64,000 nucleotides of DNA from contig RDOB01000005.1 of assembly GCA_011364965.1 (NCBI GenBank), positions 64,001-128,000 of the forward strand. The letters run 5' to 3'. Under the pieces are notes generated by a model, which was not told the origin of the DNA, searched no databases, and saw only the letters and a list, made by a program, of their open reading frames with translations. The stretch is from Candidatus Heimdallarchaeota archaeon. Lineage in GTDB: Archaea > Asgardarchaeota > Heimdallarchaeia > Hodarchaeales > Hodarchaeaceae. Positions 13,579-63,389 of this stretch are shown here, piece by piece; within the stretch, counting starts at the first letter, position 1, and the number at the start of each line of letters is the position of its first letter. A program made the position numbers and the translations under genes.

Positions 13579-14364
13579 TTAGTCCCATTTTATGCTACCT
13601 TCGGGAATAGGCCTTTCTTTACTATCCGAGGACGGCCATTCATCGATAATTAGAATATTTCCTTTGATATCTGCAACATAGGCAGTCATATCTTTTGCAA
13701 TTACTCCATATTTAGTTTTAGCAGCCATTTTGCTTGGCCCATGAATCGAGGAAGTCTTTATTAATACTAGTCCCCCTTGAATGTCAACATTCGTTAAAGT
13801 TTTTACTTGGTCATCAACTTTAATGGTTTGTAGAGCAGTTTCATATATTTCTTCAACTGCAAGTTTACCCCAAGCCTTTGAAGTAACGTATGTAACCCCA
13901 ATAGGTAGGATTATTATTATTACGATTGATAAGATTGGGTTTAAACCAGAATCAAGAAAAATCATGCCAGATCCTCCAAAAGTGATCATAAATGTTCCCA
14001 AGAGGAGCATGAGAGGAGTAGGAGTGGTTGAACTAATATCGTGACTGATATCTTTATCAATCCCAACATCTTTATCGATATGAAAACTTAAATCTTTATC
14101 CAGTCCAATGCTAACATCACTATCAACATCTACATCCATATCGGCATCAATATCAACATCTGAATCGATTTCTATTCCAGCATGGTCAATTGAGACATCA
14201 TGACCTAGATCATGATCAAAGTCAGCATCATGATCAAATAAGTGGCTACCTTGTACAAACAATGTAAGAAAGAATATGATTAGACCAGAAATAAGACTTC
14301 CAAAGCAAATTTGCTTCAAGATATAGATAAATAACTCTAAATTGACCATTGCCATGACTCTCAA
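13579..14364 (-). CDS. NfeD/YuaF-like membrane partner of flotillin, with Asp/His-rich loop
   Basis: TM helices, a DHD/DxD low-complexity loop and an OB-fold-like C-terminus; directly upstream of the SPFH gene, the usual gene pair. Confidence 0.75.
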   Translation of the reverse strand: MRVMAMVNLELFIYILKQICFGSLISGLIIFFLTLFVQGSHLFDHDADFDHDLGHDVSIDHAGIEIDSDVDIDADMDVDVDSDVSIGLDKDLSFHIDKDVGIDKDISHDISSTTPTPLMLLLGTFMITFGGSGMIFLDSGLNPILSIVIIIILPIGVTYVTSKAWGKLAVEEIYETALQTIKVDDQVKTLTNVDIQGGLVLIKTSSIHGPSKMAAKTKYGVIAKDMTAYVADIKGNILIIDEWPSSDSKERPIPEGSIKWD

Positions 14365-25183: not shown

Positions 25184-26953
25184 CTATTCTATTGTCGCTC
25201 GGATTCTTATTAAGCCTGTTCCGATATTCTGCTGCTTTTGAATTATAAAATGCTTAATTTCACTCGTATTTCTGACATGGGGTCCTGTACAAATTTCTTT
25301 GGAAAAATCTCCAACAGAATAAACAGATACATTTTCTTCATATCGATCATCAAAGAAACCTAAAGCTCCTTGTTTTTTGGCTTCTGAAGGCTTCATAATT
25401 ACTTTCTTAACTGGTAACGCTTCCTGTATTTTTTGGTTAACAAGATCTTCAACTGCTTTCAGTTCTTCCCTAGAGAGTTTCTGTGAATGAGTAAAGTCAA
25501 AGCGTGTCCTTTCTGATGTGATATTACTTCCTCTTTGCTGAACGTGTTCACCTAATACCTCTCTCAAAGCTTGCTGAAGTAAGTGAGTTGCTGTATGTAA
25601 TCTTGTAGTTCTTGATGAATGATCAGCTAATCCACTTTGAAAAGTTCCTTCAGTTGCTTTCCGTGAGAGATCTCTATGTCCTTCAAATTCCTGTTTAAAT
25701 TTATCAAGATCGATTTCTAGATTTTTTTCAGCAGCTAATTCAAGAGTAATTTCCAATGGGAATCCGAATGAAGTAAATAATAAAAAAGCATCCTTTGCTG
25801 TAATTGTACCAGTCTGCGAATAGATTTGATTAAATTTTCTCAATCCTTTTCTTAAGGCAGTAGAAAATTTCTGCTCTTCTTGAGTTAACTGCTCAATTAT
25901 AAAGCTTTTATTATTTTCAAGTTCTGGGTAAATATTTTTGTAGGTTTCTATGACTATCTGAGCAAGAACTGGAAGAAAGCGTTGTTTGATATTTAATAAA
26001 TTTCCCTGTCTAATAATCCTTCTTATTAAACGCCTTAAAACGTATCCTTGCCCCAAATTAGATGGTGTTAAATGTTTATCGTCTCCTAGAATGAAAGTTG
26101 CAGCACGAATATGATCTGCTATTATATGGACTGATTCTATTTGTTCTGGGTTAGGATGGTCTATTTTCGTGAAATCTACTATACGATCCACTATTGGTTT
26201 AATCGTATCAATTTCGAAAATTGTCTTCATATCATTTAATACTGCCACAGTCCGTTCAATCCCCATGCCTGTATCAACATTTTTCTGTTTTAATTTTTCG
26301 TATTTATTCTCTGAAACTTTATTATAACTCATAAATACGTCATTCCAGATTTCAAAATACTTACCACAATTACAACCTGGTTGACAGCTTGAAGAGCATT
26401 TTTTCTTTCCTGTATCGAAAAACATTTCAGTATCTGGACCACAAGGCCCTGTTTCCCCAGCTGGTCCCCACCAATTATCTTCACGAGGTAGATAATATAT
26501 TCTTTTTTCAGGAATACCCACTTTTTTCCAAATAGATGCAGATTCCTCATCACGAGGAACCTCTTCATCGCCTTCAAAAACGGTTACAGAGATTTTATTT
26601 GGATCTAGGCCTAGCCAACGTGGATCCGTTAAGAACTCCCAGCTCATCTCTATTGCTTCTTCTTTGAAATAATCCCCTAAAGACCAGTTACCAAGCATTT
26701 CAAAAAATGTTAAATGAGTCGAATCTCCAACATCTTCAATATCACCTGTACGGATGCATTTTTGACAATTTACTAGGCGTTTACCAGACGGATGGGGTTC
26801 TCCAAGTAAAAATGGTTGCAGAGGGTGCATGCCAGCGGTCGTGAAAAGGACTGTAGGATCATTTTCAGGTAGTAAAGAAGCTGAGCTAATGATAGAATGA
26901 TTTTTTTCTTCAAAAAATTTCAAGTACAATGTTCTAAGCATATCGGAGTCCAC
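25184..26953 (-). CDS. alaS: Alanine--tRNA ligase, short form lacking the C-Ala domain
   Basis: LFTTAGMHPL, HLTFFEMLGNWS, GPCGPDTE, DTGMGIER, DHIRA; editing motifs HTATH and CTGPH. Confidence 0.95.
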   Translation of the reverse strand: MDSDMLRTLYLKFFEEKNHSIISSASLLPENDPTVLFTTAGMHPLQPFLLGEPHPSGKRLVNCQKCIRTGDIEDVGDSTHLTFFEMLGNWSLGDYFKEEAIEMSWEFLTDPRWLGLDPNKISVTVFEGDEEVPRDEESASIWKKVGIPEKRIYYLPREDNWWGPAGETGPCGPDTEMFFDTGKKKCSSSCQPGCNCGKYFEIWNDVFMSYNKVSENKYEKLKQKNVDTGMGIERTVAVLNDMKTIFEIDTIKPIVDRIVDFTKIDHPNPEQIESVHIIADHIRAATFILGDDKHLTPSNLGQGYVLRRLIRRIIRQGNLLNIKQRFLPVLAQIVIETYKNIYPELENNKSFIIEQLTQEEQKFSTALRKGLRKFNQIYSQTGTITAKDAFLLFTSFGFPLEITLELAAEKNLEIDLDKFKQEFEGHRDLSRKATEGTFQSGLADHSSRTTRLHTATHLLQQALREVLGEHVQQRGSNITSERTRFDFTHSQKLSREELKAVEDLVNQKIQEALPVKKVIMKPSEAKKQGALGFFDDRYEENVSVYSVGDFSKEICTGPHVRNTSEIKHFIIQKQQNIGTGLIRIRATIE

Positions 26954-27056: not shown

Positions 27057-30000
27057 TTACTTATTCTTCACATTATTAATCGAAATCGTGAGCTCTCTAG
27101 TTTTACTGTAAGGATCTTGAATGACCCAGTTTTTAGTAAATCCTTTTACTGTAGAAAAATCGAGAGACAAAGCGAGGACTTCTTCTTTAATCAAGTTTAG
27201 ATAGCGTTGTATCATTTCTTGAGTTTCATTGGTAATATTACTTATTCCCACACATATTTCGTCGTCATATGCGAGCTCCATATCTTTTCGCATTGATTGG
27301 ATTCGTCTAATTAAATCACGTACGAACCCTTCTTGTAGAAGTTCCTCACTAGGATTCATATTGAGGAATAGATCTCCATGAGTGAAAGAAGCCCCGCTAT
27401 ATCCTTCTCGTTCTGTAATTCGAATTTCTAAATCTTCTTTAGAAATTGTAACAATTTGTCCATTGATCTCAATTTCAAGTGTACCGTTTGCATTTAAGAT
27501 TTCAGCAATATCTTTTGCAGTTTGCCCTTTTTGTCCCCTCATCCAAGAAGCAACATCATTTGCATTCTTTTTAAATTTAGGGCCTAATTGTTTGAAATTT
27601 GGTGCAAAAGAAATCTCCTGAAATTCAACAGGATTATCAGAAAAAAGCATCTCTTTTACGTTCAACTCTTGAAGTAATAAATCTTTAAATGCAATTAATG
27701 CTTCTTTTCCTTGCGAATTAGTGACAAAGATAACCTGGGGAAGAGGCCAACGAGCTTTAAAGTCTTTTCTTGCTCTAATGGCCCTTCCGGTAGTTATCGC
27801 GTCACGTGAGATACTCACCAATGATTCTAGTTCTGGTTTTATAGCCTGTTCATTGACGTGGGGATAGGTTTCAAGATGTACACTTAATTTTCCATGACCT
27901 TGGCTTACAACAAGGTCTTGGTAAATTTTTTCACTAAGAAATGGTAAAATTGGAGCGATTACTTTGGATAAAGATTCTAATATCTCATATAAGGTAGAGT
28001 ACGCTGATTTTTTTGAAACAGTTAATTTTTTTTCCCAAAATCTCCTTCGAGACTGTCTGATCCATAAATTGGAAAGGTCTGCGTTCAAGAAATTTTTAAG
28101 AGCTTTTATAGCAAAATGAATTGATAAATCGTCATACCCTTGTTCTATTTCCTTTAATGTGGTATTATAACGAGAGAGTATCCATTGGTCAAGCAATGGT
28201 CTTTTAGATGGTGCAATTTGATATTTTTTTAGCTCTGGAGAGTAATTATCTAGATTTGCATAAGTGACAAAGAAAGATAATACATTCCAAAGCGGTAAAA
28301 TGAATTCTTTGAGACTTTCCTCTACAAGATTGTCACCAAATCGAACATCATTCCAAGTAGGTGTGCTAAAGAGAAGCCATCTGGAAGGATCAGCTCCATA
28401 TTCACTGAAAATATGCTGTGGATCACTGTAGTTTCCTTTTGATTTGGACATCTTCTTACCGTCTTCATCTTGAACATGCCCCATAGTTAAACACGTTAGA
28501 TATGCAGGTTTATCAAATACAACTGTAGAGATCGCTAAGAGAGAGTAGAACCATCCTCGGGTTTGATCGATAGCTTCAGTAATAAAATCAATTGGAAAAT
28601 GCTTTTCAAATTCTTCCTTGTTTTCAAAGGGATAGTGCCATTGAGCGAATGGTGCTGATCCAGAGTCATACCAGCAATCTATTACATACTCTTCTCGTTT
28701 CGCTAAAGATTTACATTTAGGGCATGTGACTTGTATTTTATCAACATCTGGTTTATGAAGAGAGAATCCTTTAGGTAAACCTCCTTTAGTCAAATTATGA
28801 AGCTCTTTACGGCTTCCCACAATGAATTCATGTCCCTTTTTGCAGGTCCAAATTGGAAGAGGAGTACCCCAATAGCGCGAGCGGGATAAAGACCAGTCTT
28901 TTAATTCATCTAGGAAATTACCAAATCGGCCATCTTTAAGGTGCTTGGGTTGCCATCTGATTTGTTGATTTAATTCTCGGATGCGATCACGGACTTGGCT
29001 CATACCAATAAACCAAGATTCCATGGCATAATAAAGAAGAGGGGAATCACATCTCCAGCAAAACGGATATGTATGGGTTATCTCTTCAACTCGAAGTAGT
29101 TTATTCTCTTCCTCTAATTTGTTTATAATAAGGGGGTCTGCTTTTTTGACATGTAAACCACCAAAATCAGGCATATCTGGATCAAAAGTTCCATTTTCAC
29201 GAACAGGATTTAGCATATCTACTCCTATTGCTTGACATAGCTCATAGTCTTCCACACCAAACGCAGGTGCACAATGAACTATCCCTGTTCCTTCTTCCAT
29301 TGAAACAAAATCCGCTGCAACAATGAAATGAGCTTTACCAGTCTTTTTGTTGGCTGTATAAGGGAAAAGAGCTTCATATTCTAAATCGAGGAGTGTTTCG
29401 CCAGGATATTCCTTGAGGATATCTTTTTTCTCATGAAAAACCCGTGGTAAGAGTTCTTTTGCAAATATGAGGATTTCACCTTCGTGATCGACTTCAATGT
29501 ATGCAGCTTCTTTATTAACAGCTAATACTAAATTGGAAAGTAAAGTCCAAGGAGTTGTAGTCCAAGCTAAGGCGTACTTATTTGTTTCTCCTTTTAATTT
29601 GAACTTGATGAATATACTCGGATCTTGGGTTTCCTGATATCCCTGGGCAACTTCATGAGAGGAAATAGGAGTTCCACATCTAGTACAGTAGGGGACAACT
29701 TTATACCCTTTGAATAATAATTTTTTATCATAAATCTGTTTTAACGACCACCAAACCGATTCAATATAATCTTCAGACATTGTGATGTAGGATTTGGAGA
29801 GATCAAGATGAAAACCAATTCTTTCAGACAGCTCTTCCCATTCTTTGACATAACGCATCACAGACTCTGGACACTTAGTAATGAACTTATCAATGCCATA
29901 TTCGATAATATCCTCTTTGCTTTCCAGACCAAGCTCCTTTTCAACTTCAATCTCGACAGGGAGTCCATGACAATCCCAGCCTCCTATTCTTGGTGTTACA

Positions 30001-30236
30001 TAGTGGCCTGTCATGGTTTTGTATCGTAGATAAATATCCTTTATTGCTCGAGTTAACGCATGGCCCATATGGGGGTGTCCATTTGCTGTCGGGGGTCCTT
30101 CCAAAAAAACAAAAGGTTTTTTGTCTTTAGATGCCTCCTGTATCTTGTTATAAATATCATTTTGTTTCCAAAATTCCAGTATGTGCATCTCTTCTTTCGG
30201 AAGGTTTGGTTTGGTTGGTAGATTCGGGAATTTCAC
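27057..30236 (-). CDS. ileS: Isoleucine--tRNA ligase (archaeal/eukaryote type)
   Basis: EGPPTANGHPHMGH, GWDCHGLPVE, WTTTPWTL, GTGIVH, SRSRYWGTPLP, DQTRGWFY, KMSKS. Confidence 0.97.
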   Translation of the reverse strand: MKFPNLPTKPNLPKEEMHILEFWKQNDIYNKIQEASKDKKPFVFLEGPPTANGHPHMGHALTRAIKDIYLRYKTMTGHYVTPRIGGWDCHGLPVEIEVEKELGLESKEDIIEYGIDKFITKCPESVMRYVKEWEELSERIGFHLDLSKSYITMSEDYIESVWWSLKQIYDKKLLFKGYKVVPYCTRCGTPISSHEVAQGYQETQDPSIFIKFKLKGETNKYALAWTTTPWTLLSNLVLAVNKEAAYIEVDHEGEILIFAKELLPRVFHEKKDILKEYPGETLLDLEYEALFPYTANKKTGKAHFIVAADFVSMEEGTGIVHCAPAFGVEDYELCQAIGVDMLNPVRENGTFDPDMPDFGGLHVKKADPLIINKLEEENKLLRVEEITHTYPFCWRCDSPLLYYAMESWFIGMSQVRDRIRELNQQIRWQPKHLKDGRFGNFLDELKDWSLSRSRYWGTPLPIWTCKKGHEFIVGSRKELHNLTKGGLPKGFSLHKPDVDKIQVTCPKCKSLAKREEYVIDCWYDSGSAPFAQWHYPFENKEEFEKHFPIDFITEAIDQTRGWFYSLLAISTVVFDKPAYLTCLTMGHVQDEDGKKMSKSKGNYSDPQHIFSEYGADPSRWLLFSTPTWNDVRFGDNLVEESLKEFILPLWNVLSFFVTYANLDNYSPELKKYQIAPSKRPLLDQWILSRYNTTLKEIEQGYDDLSIHFAIKALKNFLNADLSNLWIRQSRRRFWEKKLTVSKKSAYSTLYEILESLSKVIAPILPFLSEKIYQDLVVSQGHGKLSVHLETYPHVNEQAIKPELESLVSISRDAITTGRAIRARKDFKARWPLPQVIFVTNSQGKEALIAFKDLLLQELNVKEMLFSDNPVEFQEISFAPNFKQLGPKFKKNANDVASWMRGQKGQTAKDIAEILNANGTLEIEINGQIVTISKEDLEIRITEREGYSGASFTHGDLFLNMNPSEELLQEGFVRDLIRRIQSMRKDMELAYDDEICVGISNITNETQEMIQRYLNLIKEEVLALSLDFSTVKGFTKNWVIQDPYSKTRELTISINNVKNK

Positions 30237-30398
30237 AATTTACGCCTCTTTATGTCTTTAGACGGAGAATTGCATGCATTCTTACTTCAAAGATCTTTCC
30301 CAAAAAACGTTTGGCTAGTTTTGGAGGAAATTTCCTTATGTGATTACAAAAGGGAATCTGAATGTCAAAAATACAGCAATCTAAATATCCGTTCAAAC

Positions 30399-30548
30399 TC
30401 TCAAACTCCCAGGAAAAGTTGAGAAAATACTTTTTAAGCAAAAATAATTTGTGCGACAATAATAATGGCTCCTATGAGCTCATTGAAATTAGATTTGTCT
30501 AATTGCATATTGTCACATCATTTTAACAACTAGAGTTTCCTGGCCTCC
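30399..30548 (-). promoter_or_regulatory. Conserved structured leader element, copy 1 (upstream of ileS)
   Basis: Aligns without gaps to 62028-62177 (offset 31629), with identical 16-nt and 29-nt terminal blocks and complementary internal segments. Confidence 0.85.
30434..30508 (-). CDS. Ile-rich 24-aa putative leader peptide MQLDKSNFNELIGAIIIVAQIIFA
   Basis: Manual translation. Same length as the paralogue at 62063-62137, 12/24 identical, with synonymous changes. Confidence 0.75.
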   Translation of the reverse strand: MQLDKSNFNELIGAIIIVAQIIFA

Positions 30549-30554
30549 GGTTGA

Positions 30555-30573: not shown

Positions 30574-30590
30574 TCTTATAAGCTTTTGTT
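30574..30590 (-). promoter_or_regulatory. BRE/TATA promoter of the ileS leader
   Basis: Minus strand reads AACAAAAGC-TTATAAGA; TTATAA at 30576-30581 lies 27 nt upstream of the element, the same as in copy 2. Confidence 0.7.
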
Positions 30591-60981: not shown

Positions 60982-61665
60982 GTGAGGAAAATGTGTTTCA
61001 TGCAAGCTGAATCACTAACAGTGCTATTATTTACGCTTTGGGGAACACAACACTCTATACTTGCATCAAACAGGGTAAAAAAACGAGCAGGATTTGATCC
61101 TCTAGATCAAAAATATAGAATCGGTTTCATTGTGATCTCTCTCCTTTCTTTTGCGTTTCTTGAGTCAATCATAAATATATATCTTATTCCTGAGGGAAAA
61201 TTCGTCTCCTCAATAATAGATATGTCTATCCTATCCGATCTAATTCTTTATTATATCCTAACTATTACAGGATGGATTATGGCAATTGGCGCATTTATTC
61301 AAGCAGGCCCATTGACTTTCAGTGGCTTAAAAGGCGAAAAAAGAGCTCCTATTAAATTTAATGGATTCTATCGGTTTTCTCGCCATCCTATTTATTTTGG
61401 AGTGATGTTAGCTACTCTTGCATTAATGTTGACAGTATCTAATAGTGTTTTACTAGTAAAGTATTTAAGTTTTCTAATTTATTTTGTAATTGGGGCAAAA
61501 TTAGAGGAGCGAAGGCTTACTAATGTATTAGAAGGATATGAAGAAATGCTAAGTCGACCATTCTTATTTCCGTATCGAAAAGAGCACATTAGGATTCTCT
61601 TTGGTAGAGAAAGGAAGGAGAAGGTGGAAAAAAACCATAAAAAAATGGATTATTCAATCCAGTAG
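60982..61665 (+). CDS. ICMT/PEMT-like (MddA/NnrU-like) membrane methyltransferase
   Basis: QHSILAS, GFYRFSRHPIYFG, GAKLEERRL; TM helices. Confidence 0.8.
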   Translation: MRKMCFMQAESLTVLLFTLWGTQHSILASNRVKKRAGFDPLDQKYRIGFIVISLLSFAFLESIINIYLIPEGKFVSSIIDMSILSDLILYYILTITGWIMAIGAFIQAGPLTFSGLKGEKRAPIKFNGFYRFSRHPIYFGVMLATLALMLTVSNSVLLVKYLSFLIYFVIGAKLEERRLTNVLEGYEEMLSRPFLFPYRKEHIRILFGRERKEKVEKNHKKMDYSIQ

Positions 61666-61865
61666 TATTCAATTTTGTCTCCTTTAACTTCTTCCTCAGG
61701 GATTATAGCGATGAGATCATGGTGTAATTGGTGATGGATTAAATAACATGTTTCGTGAATATATTGCGTACACTGGTCACATTGAATAATAAGGACAAAT
61801 CCTGTCGTATCCTGTTTCAATAATAACCTGTTACAGACAGAACAGTATCGGATATCTCTACTCAT
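61650..61865 (-). CDS. 71-aa PHD/RING-like zinc-finger protein
   Basis: CSVC...CDQC...HETC...HH; GGTGA ribosome-binding site upstream. Confidence 0.75.
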   Translation of the reverse strand: MSRDIRYCSVCNRLLLKQDTTGFVLIIQCDQCTQYIHETCYLIHHQLHHDLIAIIPEEEVKGDKIEYYWIE

Positions 61866-61874
61866 CGCATCACC

Positions 61875-62003
61875 CTAACTTACTGTTTGAGAATTCACAG
61901 GAATCTGACTATTACTTCTTATTTGCAACTCTTCTTCTTTTCTTTTACAATTTACGCATTCCTTATTGGGATTAAGGACAGTTCCACAGACATCACAAAA
62001 CAC
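61875..62003 (-). CDS. 42-aa C4 zinc-finger microprotein (not in ORF track)
   Basis: GTG start after AGGAGG; MFCDVCGTVLNPNKECVNCKRKEEELQIRSNSQIPVNSQTVS. Confidence 0.7.
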   Translation of the reverse strand: MFCDVCGTVLNPNKECVNCKRKEEELQIRSNSQIPVNSQTVS

Positions 62004-62027
62004 TGAAATCTAAACCTCCTTTCAGAA

Positions 62028-62177
62028 TCTCAAACTCCCAGGAAAAGTTGAGAAAAAGTTTCTTAGACAAAAATATATTGTGTAACAATGATGATGACAC
62101 CCATAAGCCAATGGGCATTGGGATTTATAGATTGCATATTGTTACACCATTTTCAGAACAGGAGTTTCCTGGCCTCC
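62028..62177 (-). promoter_or_regulatory. Conserved structured leader element, copy 2
   Basis: Ungapped paralogue of 30399-30548. Confidence 0.85.
62063..62137 (-). CDS. Ile/Val-rich 24-aa putative leader peptide MQSINPNAHWLMGVIIIVTQYIFV
   Basis: Manual translation; paralogue of 30434-30508. Confidence 0.75.
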   Translation of the reverse strand: MQSINPNAHWLMGVIIIVTQYIFV

Positions 62178-62202
62178 TGTATAATAGAATAATAACTGGA
62201 GT

Positions 62203-62219
62203 TTTTATAAGGTTTTTTC
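62203..62219 (-). promoter_or_regulatory. BRE/TATA promoter of leader copy 2
   Basis: Minus strand reads GAAAAAACC-TTATAAAA; TTATAA at 62205-62210, same spacing as copy 1. Confidence 0.7.
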
Positions 62220-62318: not shown

Positions 62319-63389
62319 TTAAATTATTGTTTCAATCCATCCATATGGATCTTCTTTTCGGCCATACTGGATATCAATTAGATTTGTGTATAAGAGCTTA
62401 GAAATTGGGCCCACAGTCGATTTGTTGATCATATAAGACTTATCTTGATAATAAAGACTACCTATTGGAGCCACAGAGGCTGCAGTTCCTGCAGCAAAGC
62501 ATTCAGTTAGAGAACCATTGCCAATGGATTCTATCACAAAATCGATGCTTAAAGCTTTCTCGCGAACATAATATCCAGAATCATTAGCTAGAGTAAGAAT
62601 ACTCTCACGAGTAATCCCTGGTAAAATAGTTCCAGACAATGGGGGAGTGAAAATTTCATCATCTATTATGAAGAAGATATTCATTGCCCCTACTTCTTCT
62701 ATATAACGTTTATGGATGGCATCCAGCCATAAAACTTGGTTGAATCCTTTTCTTGTTGCTTCAGCAGTTACAAGCAAGCTCGCAGCATAATTACCTCCAG
62801 TTTTTACATTTCCCATCCCTCCTGGAGCTGCTCGAATATAATTTTCACTAACATAAATATTGACACATTGAAATCCTTCAGGGAAATAAGGTCCTGATGG
62901 TGACAAAATGATGTAAAAAATGAAATCTTGTGCAGTTCTAAGTCCAAGCATGGGAGTAGTGGCAATCATAGTTGGTCTTATATAGAGTGACGATCCTAAT
63001 TTCTTAGGGGCCCAATCTTTTTCCAGTTTAAGTAAAGTTATCAATCCTGTTCGATACAGCTCTTCATCAATTTCAGGCATCACTAAACGTCGTGCTGAAG
63101 AGTTGAAACGTTCGATATTTTTATCTAGACGGAAAAGGTTCAGGTTTCCTTCAGGTGTTCGATATGCTTTTTGACCTTCAAAAATAGTCTGACCGTAATG
63201 TAAGCAAACTGCAGAGGGATTTAACTCAATATTATCATATTTCACTATTCTAGGAATCTTCCATTGATCTTCTTCATAGTTCACAATAAACATTCTATCA
63301 GTAAAAACTTGGCCAAATCCTAACTCTTCATCCGATGAATATTTTACCTTTAAATCCTCAAGCGATAATGATTCAATTGTAATTTCCAA
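62319..63389 (-). CDS. ilvE: Branched-chain amino acid aminotransferase
   Basis: LGFGQVFTDRM, LHYGQTIFEGQKAY, LYIRP, KTGGNYA, EEVGAMNIF, ILPGITRES, GTAA. Confidence 0.95.
   Translation of the reverse strand: MEITIESLSLEDLKVKYSSDEELGFGQVFTDRMFIVNYEEDQWKIPRIVKYDNIELNPSAVCLHYGQTIFEGQKAYRTPEGNLNLFRLDKNIERFNSSARRLVMPEIDEELYRTGLITLLKLEKDWAPKKLGSSLYIRPTMIATTPMLGLRTAQDFIFYIILSPSGPYFPEGFQCVNIYVSENYIRAAPGGMGNVKTGGNYAASLLVTAEATRKGFNQVLWLDAIHKRYIEEVGAMNIFFIIDDEIFTPPLSGTILPGITRESILTLANDSGYYVREKALSIDFVIESIGNGSLTECFAAGTAASVAPIGSLYYQDKSYMINKSTVGPISKLLYTNLIDIQYGRKEDPYGWIETII

Follow-up and report, generated by a model that had tools for sequence, protein, structure and literature searches.

The leader and its two copies in the window

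The window, by which we mean the whole 64,000-nt stretch of DNA analysed, carries a 220-nt repeat twice on its minus strand; the two copies are 73% identical and are the only ones in the genome. Copy 1 lies upstream of ileS, and copy 2 lies 3' of ilvE and 5' of two small ORFs, one for a 42-aa zinc ribbon (ORF1) and one for a 71-aa C1/PHD-like protein (ORF2). The repeat includes a leader of about 150 nt, which consists of an upstream ORF (uORF) of 20-26 codons and three hairpins, P1, P2 and P3. A second frame, which overlaps the end of the uORF in the +1 register, is referred to as ORF-B. The features of both copies are as follows; sigma-70 promoter scanning does not apply to archaea, and the promoters given are sequence motifs.

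Copy 1 and its surroundings
30576..30587, minus: BRE/TATA-like promoter, from sequence; a similar A-rich stretch with a TTWTAA motif stands 5' of P1 in homologues; presumed to set the start site
30527..30553, minus: hairpin P1, loop CCAGGA at 30538-30543; 7/7 stem pairs with double changes; weak, -4.4 kcal/mol
30434..30508, minus: uORF, 24 codons, 6 Ile among the last 13; an SD-like motif lies 5' (-4.4 kcal/mol against the genus anti-SD)
30452..30517, minus: helix P2, arms 30508-30517 with 30452-30461, pairing the uORF SD/start region with codons 16-19 and burying the +1-frame UUG too
30399..30424, minus: hairpin P3, loop UCCUGG at 30409-30414; 4/8 pairs with double changes; 26/26 identical to copy 2
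30250..30459, minus: ORF-B, +1 frame from the UUG at codon 17/18, 69 codons; putatively translated, from stop avoidance
30386..30390, minus: decayed SD, with lost start, of a zinc-ribbon gene remnant, from pairwise alignment; GGAGG in copy 2
30301..30314, minus: promoter-like motif common to the upstream regions of relatives' ileS; probable native ileS promoter
27057..30236, minus: ileS, isoleucine--tRNA ligase, TIGR00392 above cut-off

Copy 2 and its surroundings
62204..62216, minus: BRE/TATA-like promoter, from sequence
62157..62181, minus: hairpin P1, loop hexamer 62167-62172
62063..62137, minus: uORF, 24 codons
62138-62147 with 62080-62089, minus: helix P2
62028..62053, minus: hairpin P3, loop hexamer 62038-62043
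61993..62088, minus: ORF-B, 31 codons, with an 11-nt overlap with the zinc-ribbon gene start
62015..62019, minus: zinc-ribbon gene SD, GGAGG
61875..62003, minus: ORF1, 42-aa CxxC zinc-ribbon microprotein, the ancestral target of the leader
61650..61865, minus: ORF2, 71-aa C1/PHD-like zinc finger, found in this genus only

On the same strand as ileS and 116 nt 3' of it is alaS (25184-26953), for a short PRK01584-type AlaRS, which is possibly co-transcribed with ileS under copy 1. The ilvE gene (62319-63389, minus strand), for a branched-chain aminotransferase, is directly 5' of copy 2, an arrangement seen otherwise only in homologue L119, the other leader homologues having unrelated neighbours. 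Elsewhere in the window there are short imperfect tandem-like repeats with a period of about 6 nt (14055-14172, family D2).

Distribution and targets of the leader

A DNA search and two covariance models (R1 and R2) gave 19 copies in 18 of the 22 genomes of the genus, and contigs encoding ORF2 homologues gave 8 more, so that 27 copies were available, all from one Hodarchaeales genus. The host genus is probably Ca. Hodarchaeum. ORF2 of the same-genus genome G006 is identical to a protein named Ca. Hodarchaeum mangrovi, and the best relatives of the window IleRS (67-77% identity) are labelled Hodarchaeales or Heimdallarchaeota. Outside the genus the models found no copy, either in the 61 further genomes of the class that were searched or in a sample of about 145 from the phylum, and no leader copy was found in viral contigs. 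The first-pass annotation had named an Rfam search as the way to exclude known families. At gathering score Rfam 15, with its T-box, riboswitch, leader and sRNA families, has no match in the window, and for five loci searched up to E 5 the matches were at chance level, none of them covering the leader.

A pattern scan of the genome contigs gave three matches, all unrelated and attributable to chance, and the weak extra matches L048, L049 and L140-L142 lack the uORF layout and were dropped. One stretch in the first of these (L048:1501-1617, genome G008; E 0.001 with R2) resembles P3 followed by an SD and ATG. It is antisense within another ORF, has no uORF, and is a chance match or a relic.

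In 25 of the 27 copies the leader heads the zinc-finger microprotein gene, ORF1. The other two head ileS (window copy 1) and tyrS (genome G015, NF006330 above cut-off). Since the other ileS and tyrS loci of the genus, 16 and 18 respectively, are without the leader, the ileS and tyrS copies can be treated as lineage-specific relocations and the zinc-finger cassette as the ancestral target. In a tree copy 1 clusters with copy 2 and L119. The two relocations are independent, and both are to a position before an aminoacyl-tRNA synthetase gene. The G015 leader may have been moved or duplicated to its position before tyrS: ORF2 was not found in G015, a genome that is 70% complete. A search of G000, which is 87% complete, found no tyrS. 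The tyrS start in G015 (L079) is ambiguous, being either a GTG inside an SD-like motif or an ATT where relatives have TTG or ATG.

All 13 ORF2 homologues match both the C1 and PHD Pfam models, PHD falling below cut-off in the window copy; by fold, ORF2 matched PHD only weakly (E 0.08 or worse), with nothing to indicate the signal. Among 400 Asgard genomes ORF2 is confined to this genus. A distant ORF2 homologue (L118:460-672) is without ORF1 or leader. At L116:678-1025 (P0124) gene callers translate a TGA as Trp and thereby fuse ORF1 to ORF2; the TGA overlaps an SD, so the fusion is probably an artefact of gene calling, although there may be readthrough of the TGA.

RNA structure

The sequences that the first-pass annotation had named are all present on the minus strand where it placed them, and alignment of the 27 homologues gave double changes in P1, P2 and P3. 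In that alignment, which is fitted to the structure and so leans toward it, 94% of cells are paired and 13 of 30 pairs have double changes, a count inflated by relatedness among the copies; no shuffle reached this level, and the same structure slid along the sequences gave 34-54% paired. A plain MAFFT alignment of 19 copies, blind to structure, was similar, with 90% paired and 10 double-change pairs. Covariation as seen in the alignments is convincing for P1 (7/7 pairs) and P3 (4/8).

P2 is the helix between the start region and the Ile-Ile-Ile-Val codons that had been proposed from the two window copies. It is retained across the 27 homologues, with 94-96% of cells paired and one double change (G-C in 23, A-U in 4). 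The U-G to U-A difference that was also put forward as compensatory is not covariation, because the change is one-sided. The proposed AAAAUG/UAUUUU extension can form in both window copies and is poorly kept elsewhere, at 4-15 of 19 per pair. P3 corresponds to the local hairpin described after the peptide stop and is real, with the limitation that the U-tract it was said to hide is not conserved, several lineages having only one or two U there.

All 27 copies have CCAGGA in the P1 loop and UCCUGG in the P3 loop, whereas the surrounding stems vary. These hexamers are the core of a longer invariant pairing that had been suggested earlier, and only this 6-bp core is conserved: the flanking seventh pair is C-G in 7, U-G in 7, U-A in 3 and unpaired in 10. 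The alternative AAACUC/GAGUUU helix is at chance level, with 77% paired and 412 of 500 shuffles as high. An invariant core cannot show covariation. The two loops are both invariant and complementary, which suggests a kissing interaction, with the P3 loop as candidate partner of P1. The long-range pairing had been taken to exclude P3, in an analysis that overlooked P1. As P1 presents CCAGGA in its loop, the pairing is most simply loop-to-loop and compatible with P3, and P1, P2 and P3 are themselves mutually compatible. In copy 1, where P1 is weak, a nested fold favours the 8-bp long-range helix of the earlier description instead.

Since the three hairpins and the kiss are compatible, one fold accounts for all of the covariation, and the leader could be a static structured RNA (a small RNA, a stabiliser or a type I toxin-like mRNA) that travels with its promoter and does not switch. 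The two window peptides do have a hydrophobic tail. However most of the homologous peptides are polar rather than membrane-like, so that the conserved transmembrane peptide of type I toxin-antitoxin systems is lacking, and no antisense partner was seen. A static RNA would also leave unexplained the conserved stop position, the retuned codons and the open +1 frame described below, and we consider it very improbable.

Downstream of P3 the sequence is A-rich and then has the SD, and no intrinsic terminator of the hairpin-plus-U-run type was found in the region. A translational switch might act by SD occlusion, with the P1 3' arm or the P3 loop pairing with the downstream GGAGG once the kiss is broken. 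The P1 3' arm of copy 1 is also complementary to GGAGG, the computed pairings with the SD range from -2 to -8.5 kcal/mol for the P1 3' arm and from -4 to -9 for the P3 loop, in 26 copies the distance from the beginning of the P3 loop hexamer to the SD is 23-39 nt, and the pairing is present in some MFE folds. Against this, an invariant SD cannot covary, compensatory evolution through G-U would by itself give P1 its purine/pyrimidine polarity, which adds no evidence, and copy 1 has lost the SD, which in the tyrS copy is a long way from the start of tyrS. We give this explanation little probability.

The uORF and its codons

There is good evidence, from comparison of the copies, that the uORF is translated and that the position of its stop matters. 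This follows from three properties. The length of the uORF (20-26 codons in the 27 copies) changes by triplets only; its ATG or TTG start has in 27/27 an SD that fits the genus 16S tail (-4.4 to -6.5 kcal/mol); and its stop is interchangeably TAA, TAG or TGA at a fixed distance from P3, the P3 hexamer being 18-19 nt 3' of the stop in 27/27. Folding with masked ribosome footprints, in which the kiss cannot be modelled, adds only that P3 starts at the edge of the footprint, as the loss of P3 with a 12-nt footprint is forced by the mask. The residues are weakly constrained: pN/pS is about 0.8, not below its value in the other frames, and is uninformative for this uORF.

Because the Ile-Ile-Val-Thr block can pair with the start region, the Ile codons could be retained by structure alone, and they are weaker evidence for sensing of isoleucine than at first sight. 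As 25 copies head a gene of undefined function, only the ileS and tyrS copies count for a match between codons and gene, and these two relocated copies, with codons of the downstream synthetase, offer what we infer to be the better evidence for amino-acid sensing. Among the last 13 codons Ile is commonest in the ileS copy (6, with 4 in the paralogue and 1-3 in most others). Compared with the paralogue and the outgroup L119, Met and Tyr have become Ile and two Val have become Ala, and Trp has been lost relative to the paralogue. With 3, the tyrS copy leads all others in Tyr; it is the sole copy without Ile in the last 13 codons, where Phe-Tyr replaces Ile-Ile. Only these two relocations are known, a small number, although both are at synthetase genes. 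Two copies with the usual zinc-finger cassette behind them have Asn or Val at codon 17, which counts against such sensing.

The conserved uORF and the synthetase-matched codons in both relocated copies support the earlier proposal of a switch that depends on ribosome position, and the leader is very probably a ribosome-dependent switch of some kind, all readings considered. One such reading is nascent-peptide arrest of TnaC/SecM type, or a general sensor of translation stress, in which the ribosome would be stalled by the peptide rather than by tRNA supply and the codon match in the relocated copies would be partly due to chance. Trp is 13-17 codons before the stop in 22/27 and is regained at shifted positions, Phe is two codons before the stop in 26/27, and the zinc-finger cassette has no evident link to isoleucine. 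However five copies, including copy 1, are without Trp, the length varies over 20-26 codons, there is no signal of selection on the protein, and both relocations are at synthetase genes with matching codons. We regard peptide arrest as improbable.

A second frame, ORF-B

From codon 17 of the uORF across P3, the +1 frame has no stop between the uORF stop and the SD in any of 26 copies, where 7.9 were expected to have one. In the -1 frame of the same linkers 10 copies have a stop, against 10.8 expected. By frame, the linker stop triplets number 16/0/9 (25 in total, none in +1), against 6/6/6 in a control linker, and within the uORF the +1 frame has 20 stops in the 5' part and none in the 3' part. 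The pattern was first noticed post hoc and was then tested on separate positions; the avoidance of +1 stops has P = 3-7e-4 over 19 clades and 0.04 over 8 deep groups.

The two relocated copies each have an open +1 frame from codon 17 to the start region of the synthetase gene, with shuffle P 0.026 for ileS, a value somewhat too small because about a third of the spacer is ORF1 remnant, and 0.048 for tyrS; the upstream regions of relatives have open frames in 3/48 and 1/54. In copy 1 a 1-nt deletion shifts the ancestral TGA out of frame, and the new ORF-B stop abuts the ileS SD, 13 nt 5' of the GTG. Termination-reinitiation calls for the first ORF to stop about 20 nt or less from the start of the second. 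The ORF-B stop is that close, at -16..+11 of the next start in 24/27; the uORF stop is at least about 59 nt away. In the G015 copy the ORF-B stop overlaps a GGTGA SD, as at ORF1-ORF2 junctions, and in L120 ORF-B is in frame with ORF1 and fused to it. In two divergent copies (G001 and G016), both without ORF2, there is a +1 stop at codon 17 and the frame overshoots to +28.

Entry into ORF-B could be by initiation or by frameshift. A UUG or AUG overlapping the uORF frame is found in 25/27 copies, although a UUG at codon 17/18 is a trivial outcome of Ile-Val codons and P2 pairing. The SD-like signal 5' of this UUG averages -3.5 kcal/mol against -1.3 inside genes, and may equally be P2 pairing. 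A conserved open +1 frame is what programmed +1 frameshifting calls for, but there is no conserved slippery site. In the tyrS copy codons 16-17 are UUU-UAU, which would allow a perfect +1 slip just ahead of a Tyr codon, and with the Ty1-like CUU-AUU of five others 6/27 are perfect or Ty1-like; most copies have AUU-AUU, a poor slip site. A -1 slippage on U-UUU before the stop was rejected, as the -1 frame closes at the chance rate and L121 is without the site. A +1 shift at the uORF stop, of antizyme or pheL type, is disfavoured, as the last codon is not conserved.

Output of the leader

The earlier proposal had the switch expose a U-tract to archaeal termination. This output is not supported in that form: the U-tract varies among lineages, one of the two alternative helices pairs at the chance rate, and the proposal leaves the conservation of a stop-free +1 frame unexplained. 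An amended version, a transcription attenuator of classical type with ORF-B incidental or secondary, would have a ribosome at the uORF stop melt P3 and break the kiss, leaving pyrimidine-rich RNA open to intrinsic or aCPSF1/FttA termination, while a ribosome stalled at codons 15-17 would let P3 stay folded and transcription continue. That direction suits synthetase induction under starvation. Copy 1 has lost its downstream SD and kept P3, 26/26 identical, so that SD occlusion is not needed and control of termination is a serious rival. The genome encodes aCPSF1/FttA (TIGR03675 above cut-off), the distance from stop to P3, fixed in 27/27, is at the edge of the ribosome footprint of about 12 nt (PMC4833913), and archaeal U-rich termination requires no hairpin (PMC13675443). 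However, besides the variable U-tract of P3, the region lacks a hairpin-plus-U-run terminator, the U4 before the uORF stop is broken in L121, and the attenuator gives no reason for the stop-free +1 frame. It is on balance unlikely.

We tentatively prefer, at slightly less than an even chance, a portable amino-acid sensor read by the ribosome, with a relay through the second frame as its output. The promoter-like motif, P1, the uORF with its SD, P2, P3, the invariant loop complementarity and the stop-free +1 frame are shown by comparison of the copies; sensing, kiss and relay are what we infer from them. With no ribosome the RNA would fold as P1, P2 and P3 with the loop-loop kiss, and P2 would hide the uORF start and the ORF-B UUG alike. 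A ribosome reading the uORF fast would stop 9-10 nt short of P3 and then leave. Lack of charged tRNA would hold it at codons 15-17, from where it might enter the +1 frame, either by shifting +1 at codon 17 when that codon is hungry or by restarting at the overlapping UUG or AUG. Once in ORF-B it would pass through P3 and the kiss and halt at the next start site, where it could restart, open the site, or shield nascent RNA from aCPSF1/FttA; the relay and termination models can be combined, as a ribosome travelling along ORF-B would protect nascent RNA too. A 13-nt gap retains 40-60% reinitiation in Haloferax (PMC10666635). For the ileS copy the effect would be a starvation-inducible transcript, responding to Ile-tRNA, added to that of the native promoter. 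The opposite sign is conceivable, with ORF-B read in plenty and inhibitory as is ATF4 uORF2. A more specific form of the relay, a reprogrammable sensor in which a hungry codon leads to the +1 frame, the kissing-loop lock is broken and the ribosome is passed on to the next gene, with one or two codons sufficing to retune it from Ile to Tyr, is possible but doubtful.

Comparison with known systems

E. coli ilvL, thrL and pheM-pheST are bacterial leader-peptide attenuators. The Asgard leader resembles them in its short uORF with cognate codons, its structured leader before an amino-acid gene, and its fixed distance from stop to hairpin. It differs in having an archaeal host, no conserved hairpin-plus-U-run terminator, loop-loop complementarity, a second overlapping frame, and one chassis reused for different amino acids. 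Other leader-peptide attenuators are reported from actinobacteria (PMC1262725), and a three-hairpin model for Corynebacterium ilvBNC (PMC11857589).

For frameshifting, the ermCL leader undergoes a ketolide-induced shift, and +1 frameshifting on E. coli pheL has been described as incidental (PMC5009743); the same review stated in 2016 that no starvation-specific productive use of hungry-codon frameshifting was then known. As proposed here, a ribosome off the leader frame would enter the spacer, unfold structure and permit downstream initiation, as with ermCL and pheL. However ermCL answers an antibiotic, and the +1 entry of the Asgard leader is a proposal. With no intrinsic terminator, no universal slip site and no Rfam family, the leader is not a member of the attenuator or ermCL types.

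Translational coupling by termination-reinitiation is known in archaea (PMC6728339, PMC10666635). The ORF-B stop on or beside the next SD or start is like the ORF1-ORF2 junctions of the cassette in this respect. However known archaeal coupling links two ordinary genes constitutively, and ORF-B would be a conditional relay. In eukaryotes, GCN4, and ATF4, whose main start is overlapped by an out-of-frame uORF, are cases of uORF control by amino-acid limitation. The two upstream frames, the overlap of the second with the main start, and amino-acid limitation as signal are similar, by analogy only, as the Asgard leader has SD-led starts and not cap-dependent scanning, and we claim no homology.

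Another Asgard family has Leu-rich uORFs ending in a Leu run, 5' of an archaeal-type leuS, at 7/7 loci (L143-L149). These leaders too have a synthetase gene behind a uORF that is of similar length and carries the cognate codons, but the codon run is directly before the stop, the hairpins are others, no CCAGGA/UCCUGG was seen and there is no consistent open frame to leuS. As the layout is different and our leader model found no match in 25 genomes of that Asgard family, we treat the leuS leaders as a separate family.

Significance

In the open-access literature we found no paper on ribosome-mediated attenuation in archaea. A leader with Trp codons has been discussed for Methanothermobacter. Transcription-translation coupling as opposed to aCPSF1/FttA has been called a hypothesis (PMC11616081). 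The leader, which stands before three different genes, offers a direct test of whether the position of an archaeal ribosome controls downstream expression, and also of transcription-translation coupling against aCPSF1/FttA. It presents regulatory evolution in action: a single chassis has been relocated twice, each time with a change of codons that retuned it. A close relationship of Hodarchaeales to eukaryotes has been proposed and is debated, and starvation control with two uORFs in this group would bear on the origins of GCN4/ATF4-type control, at least by analogy.
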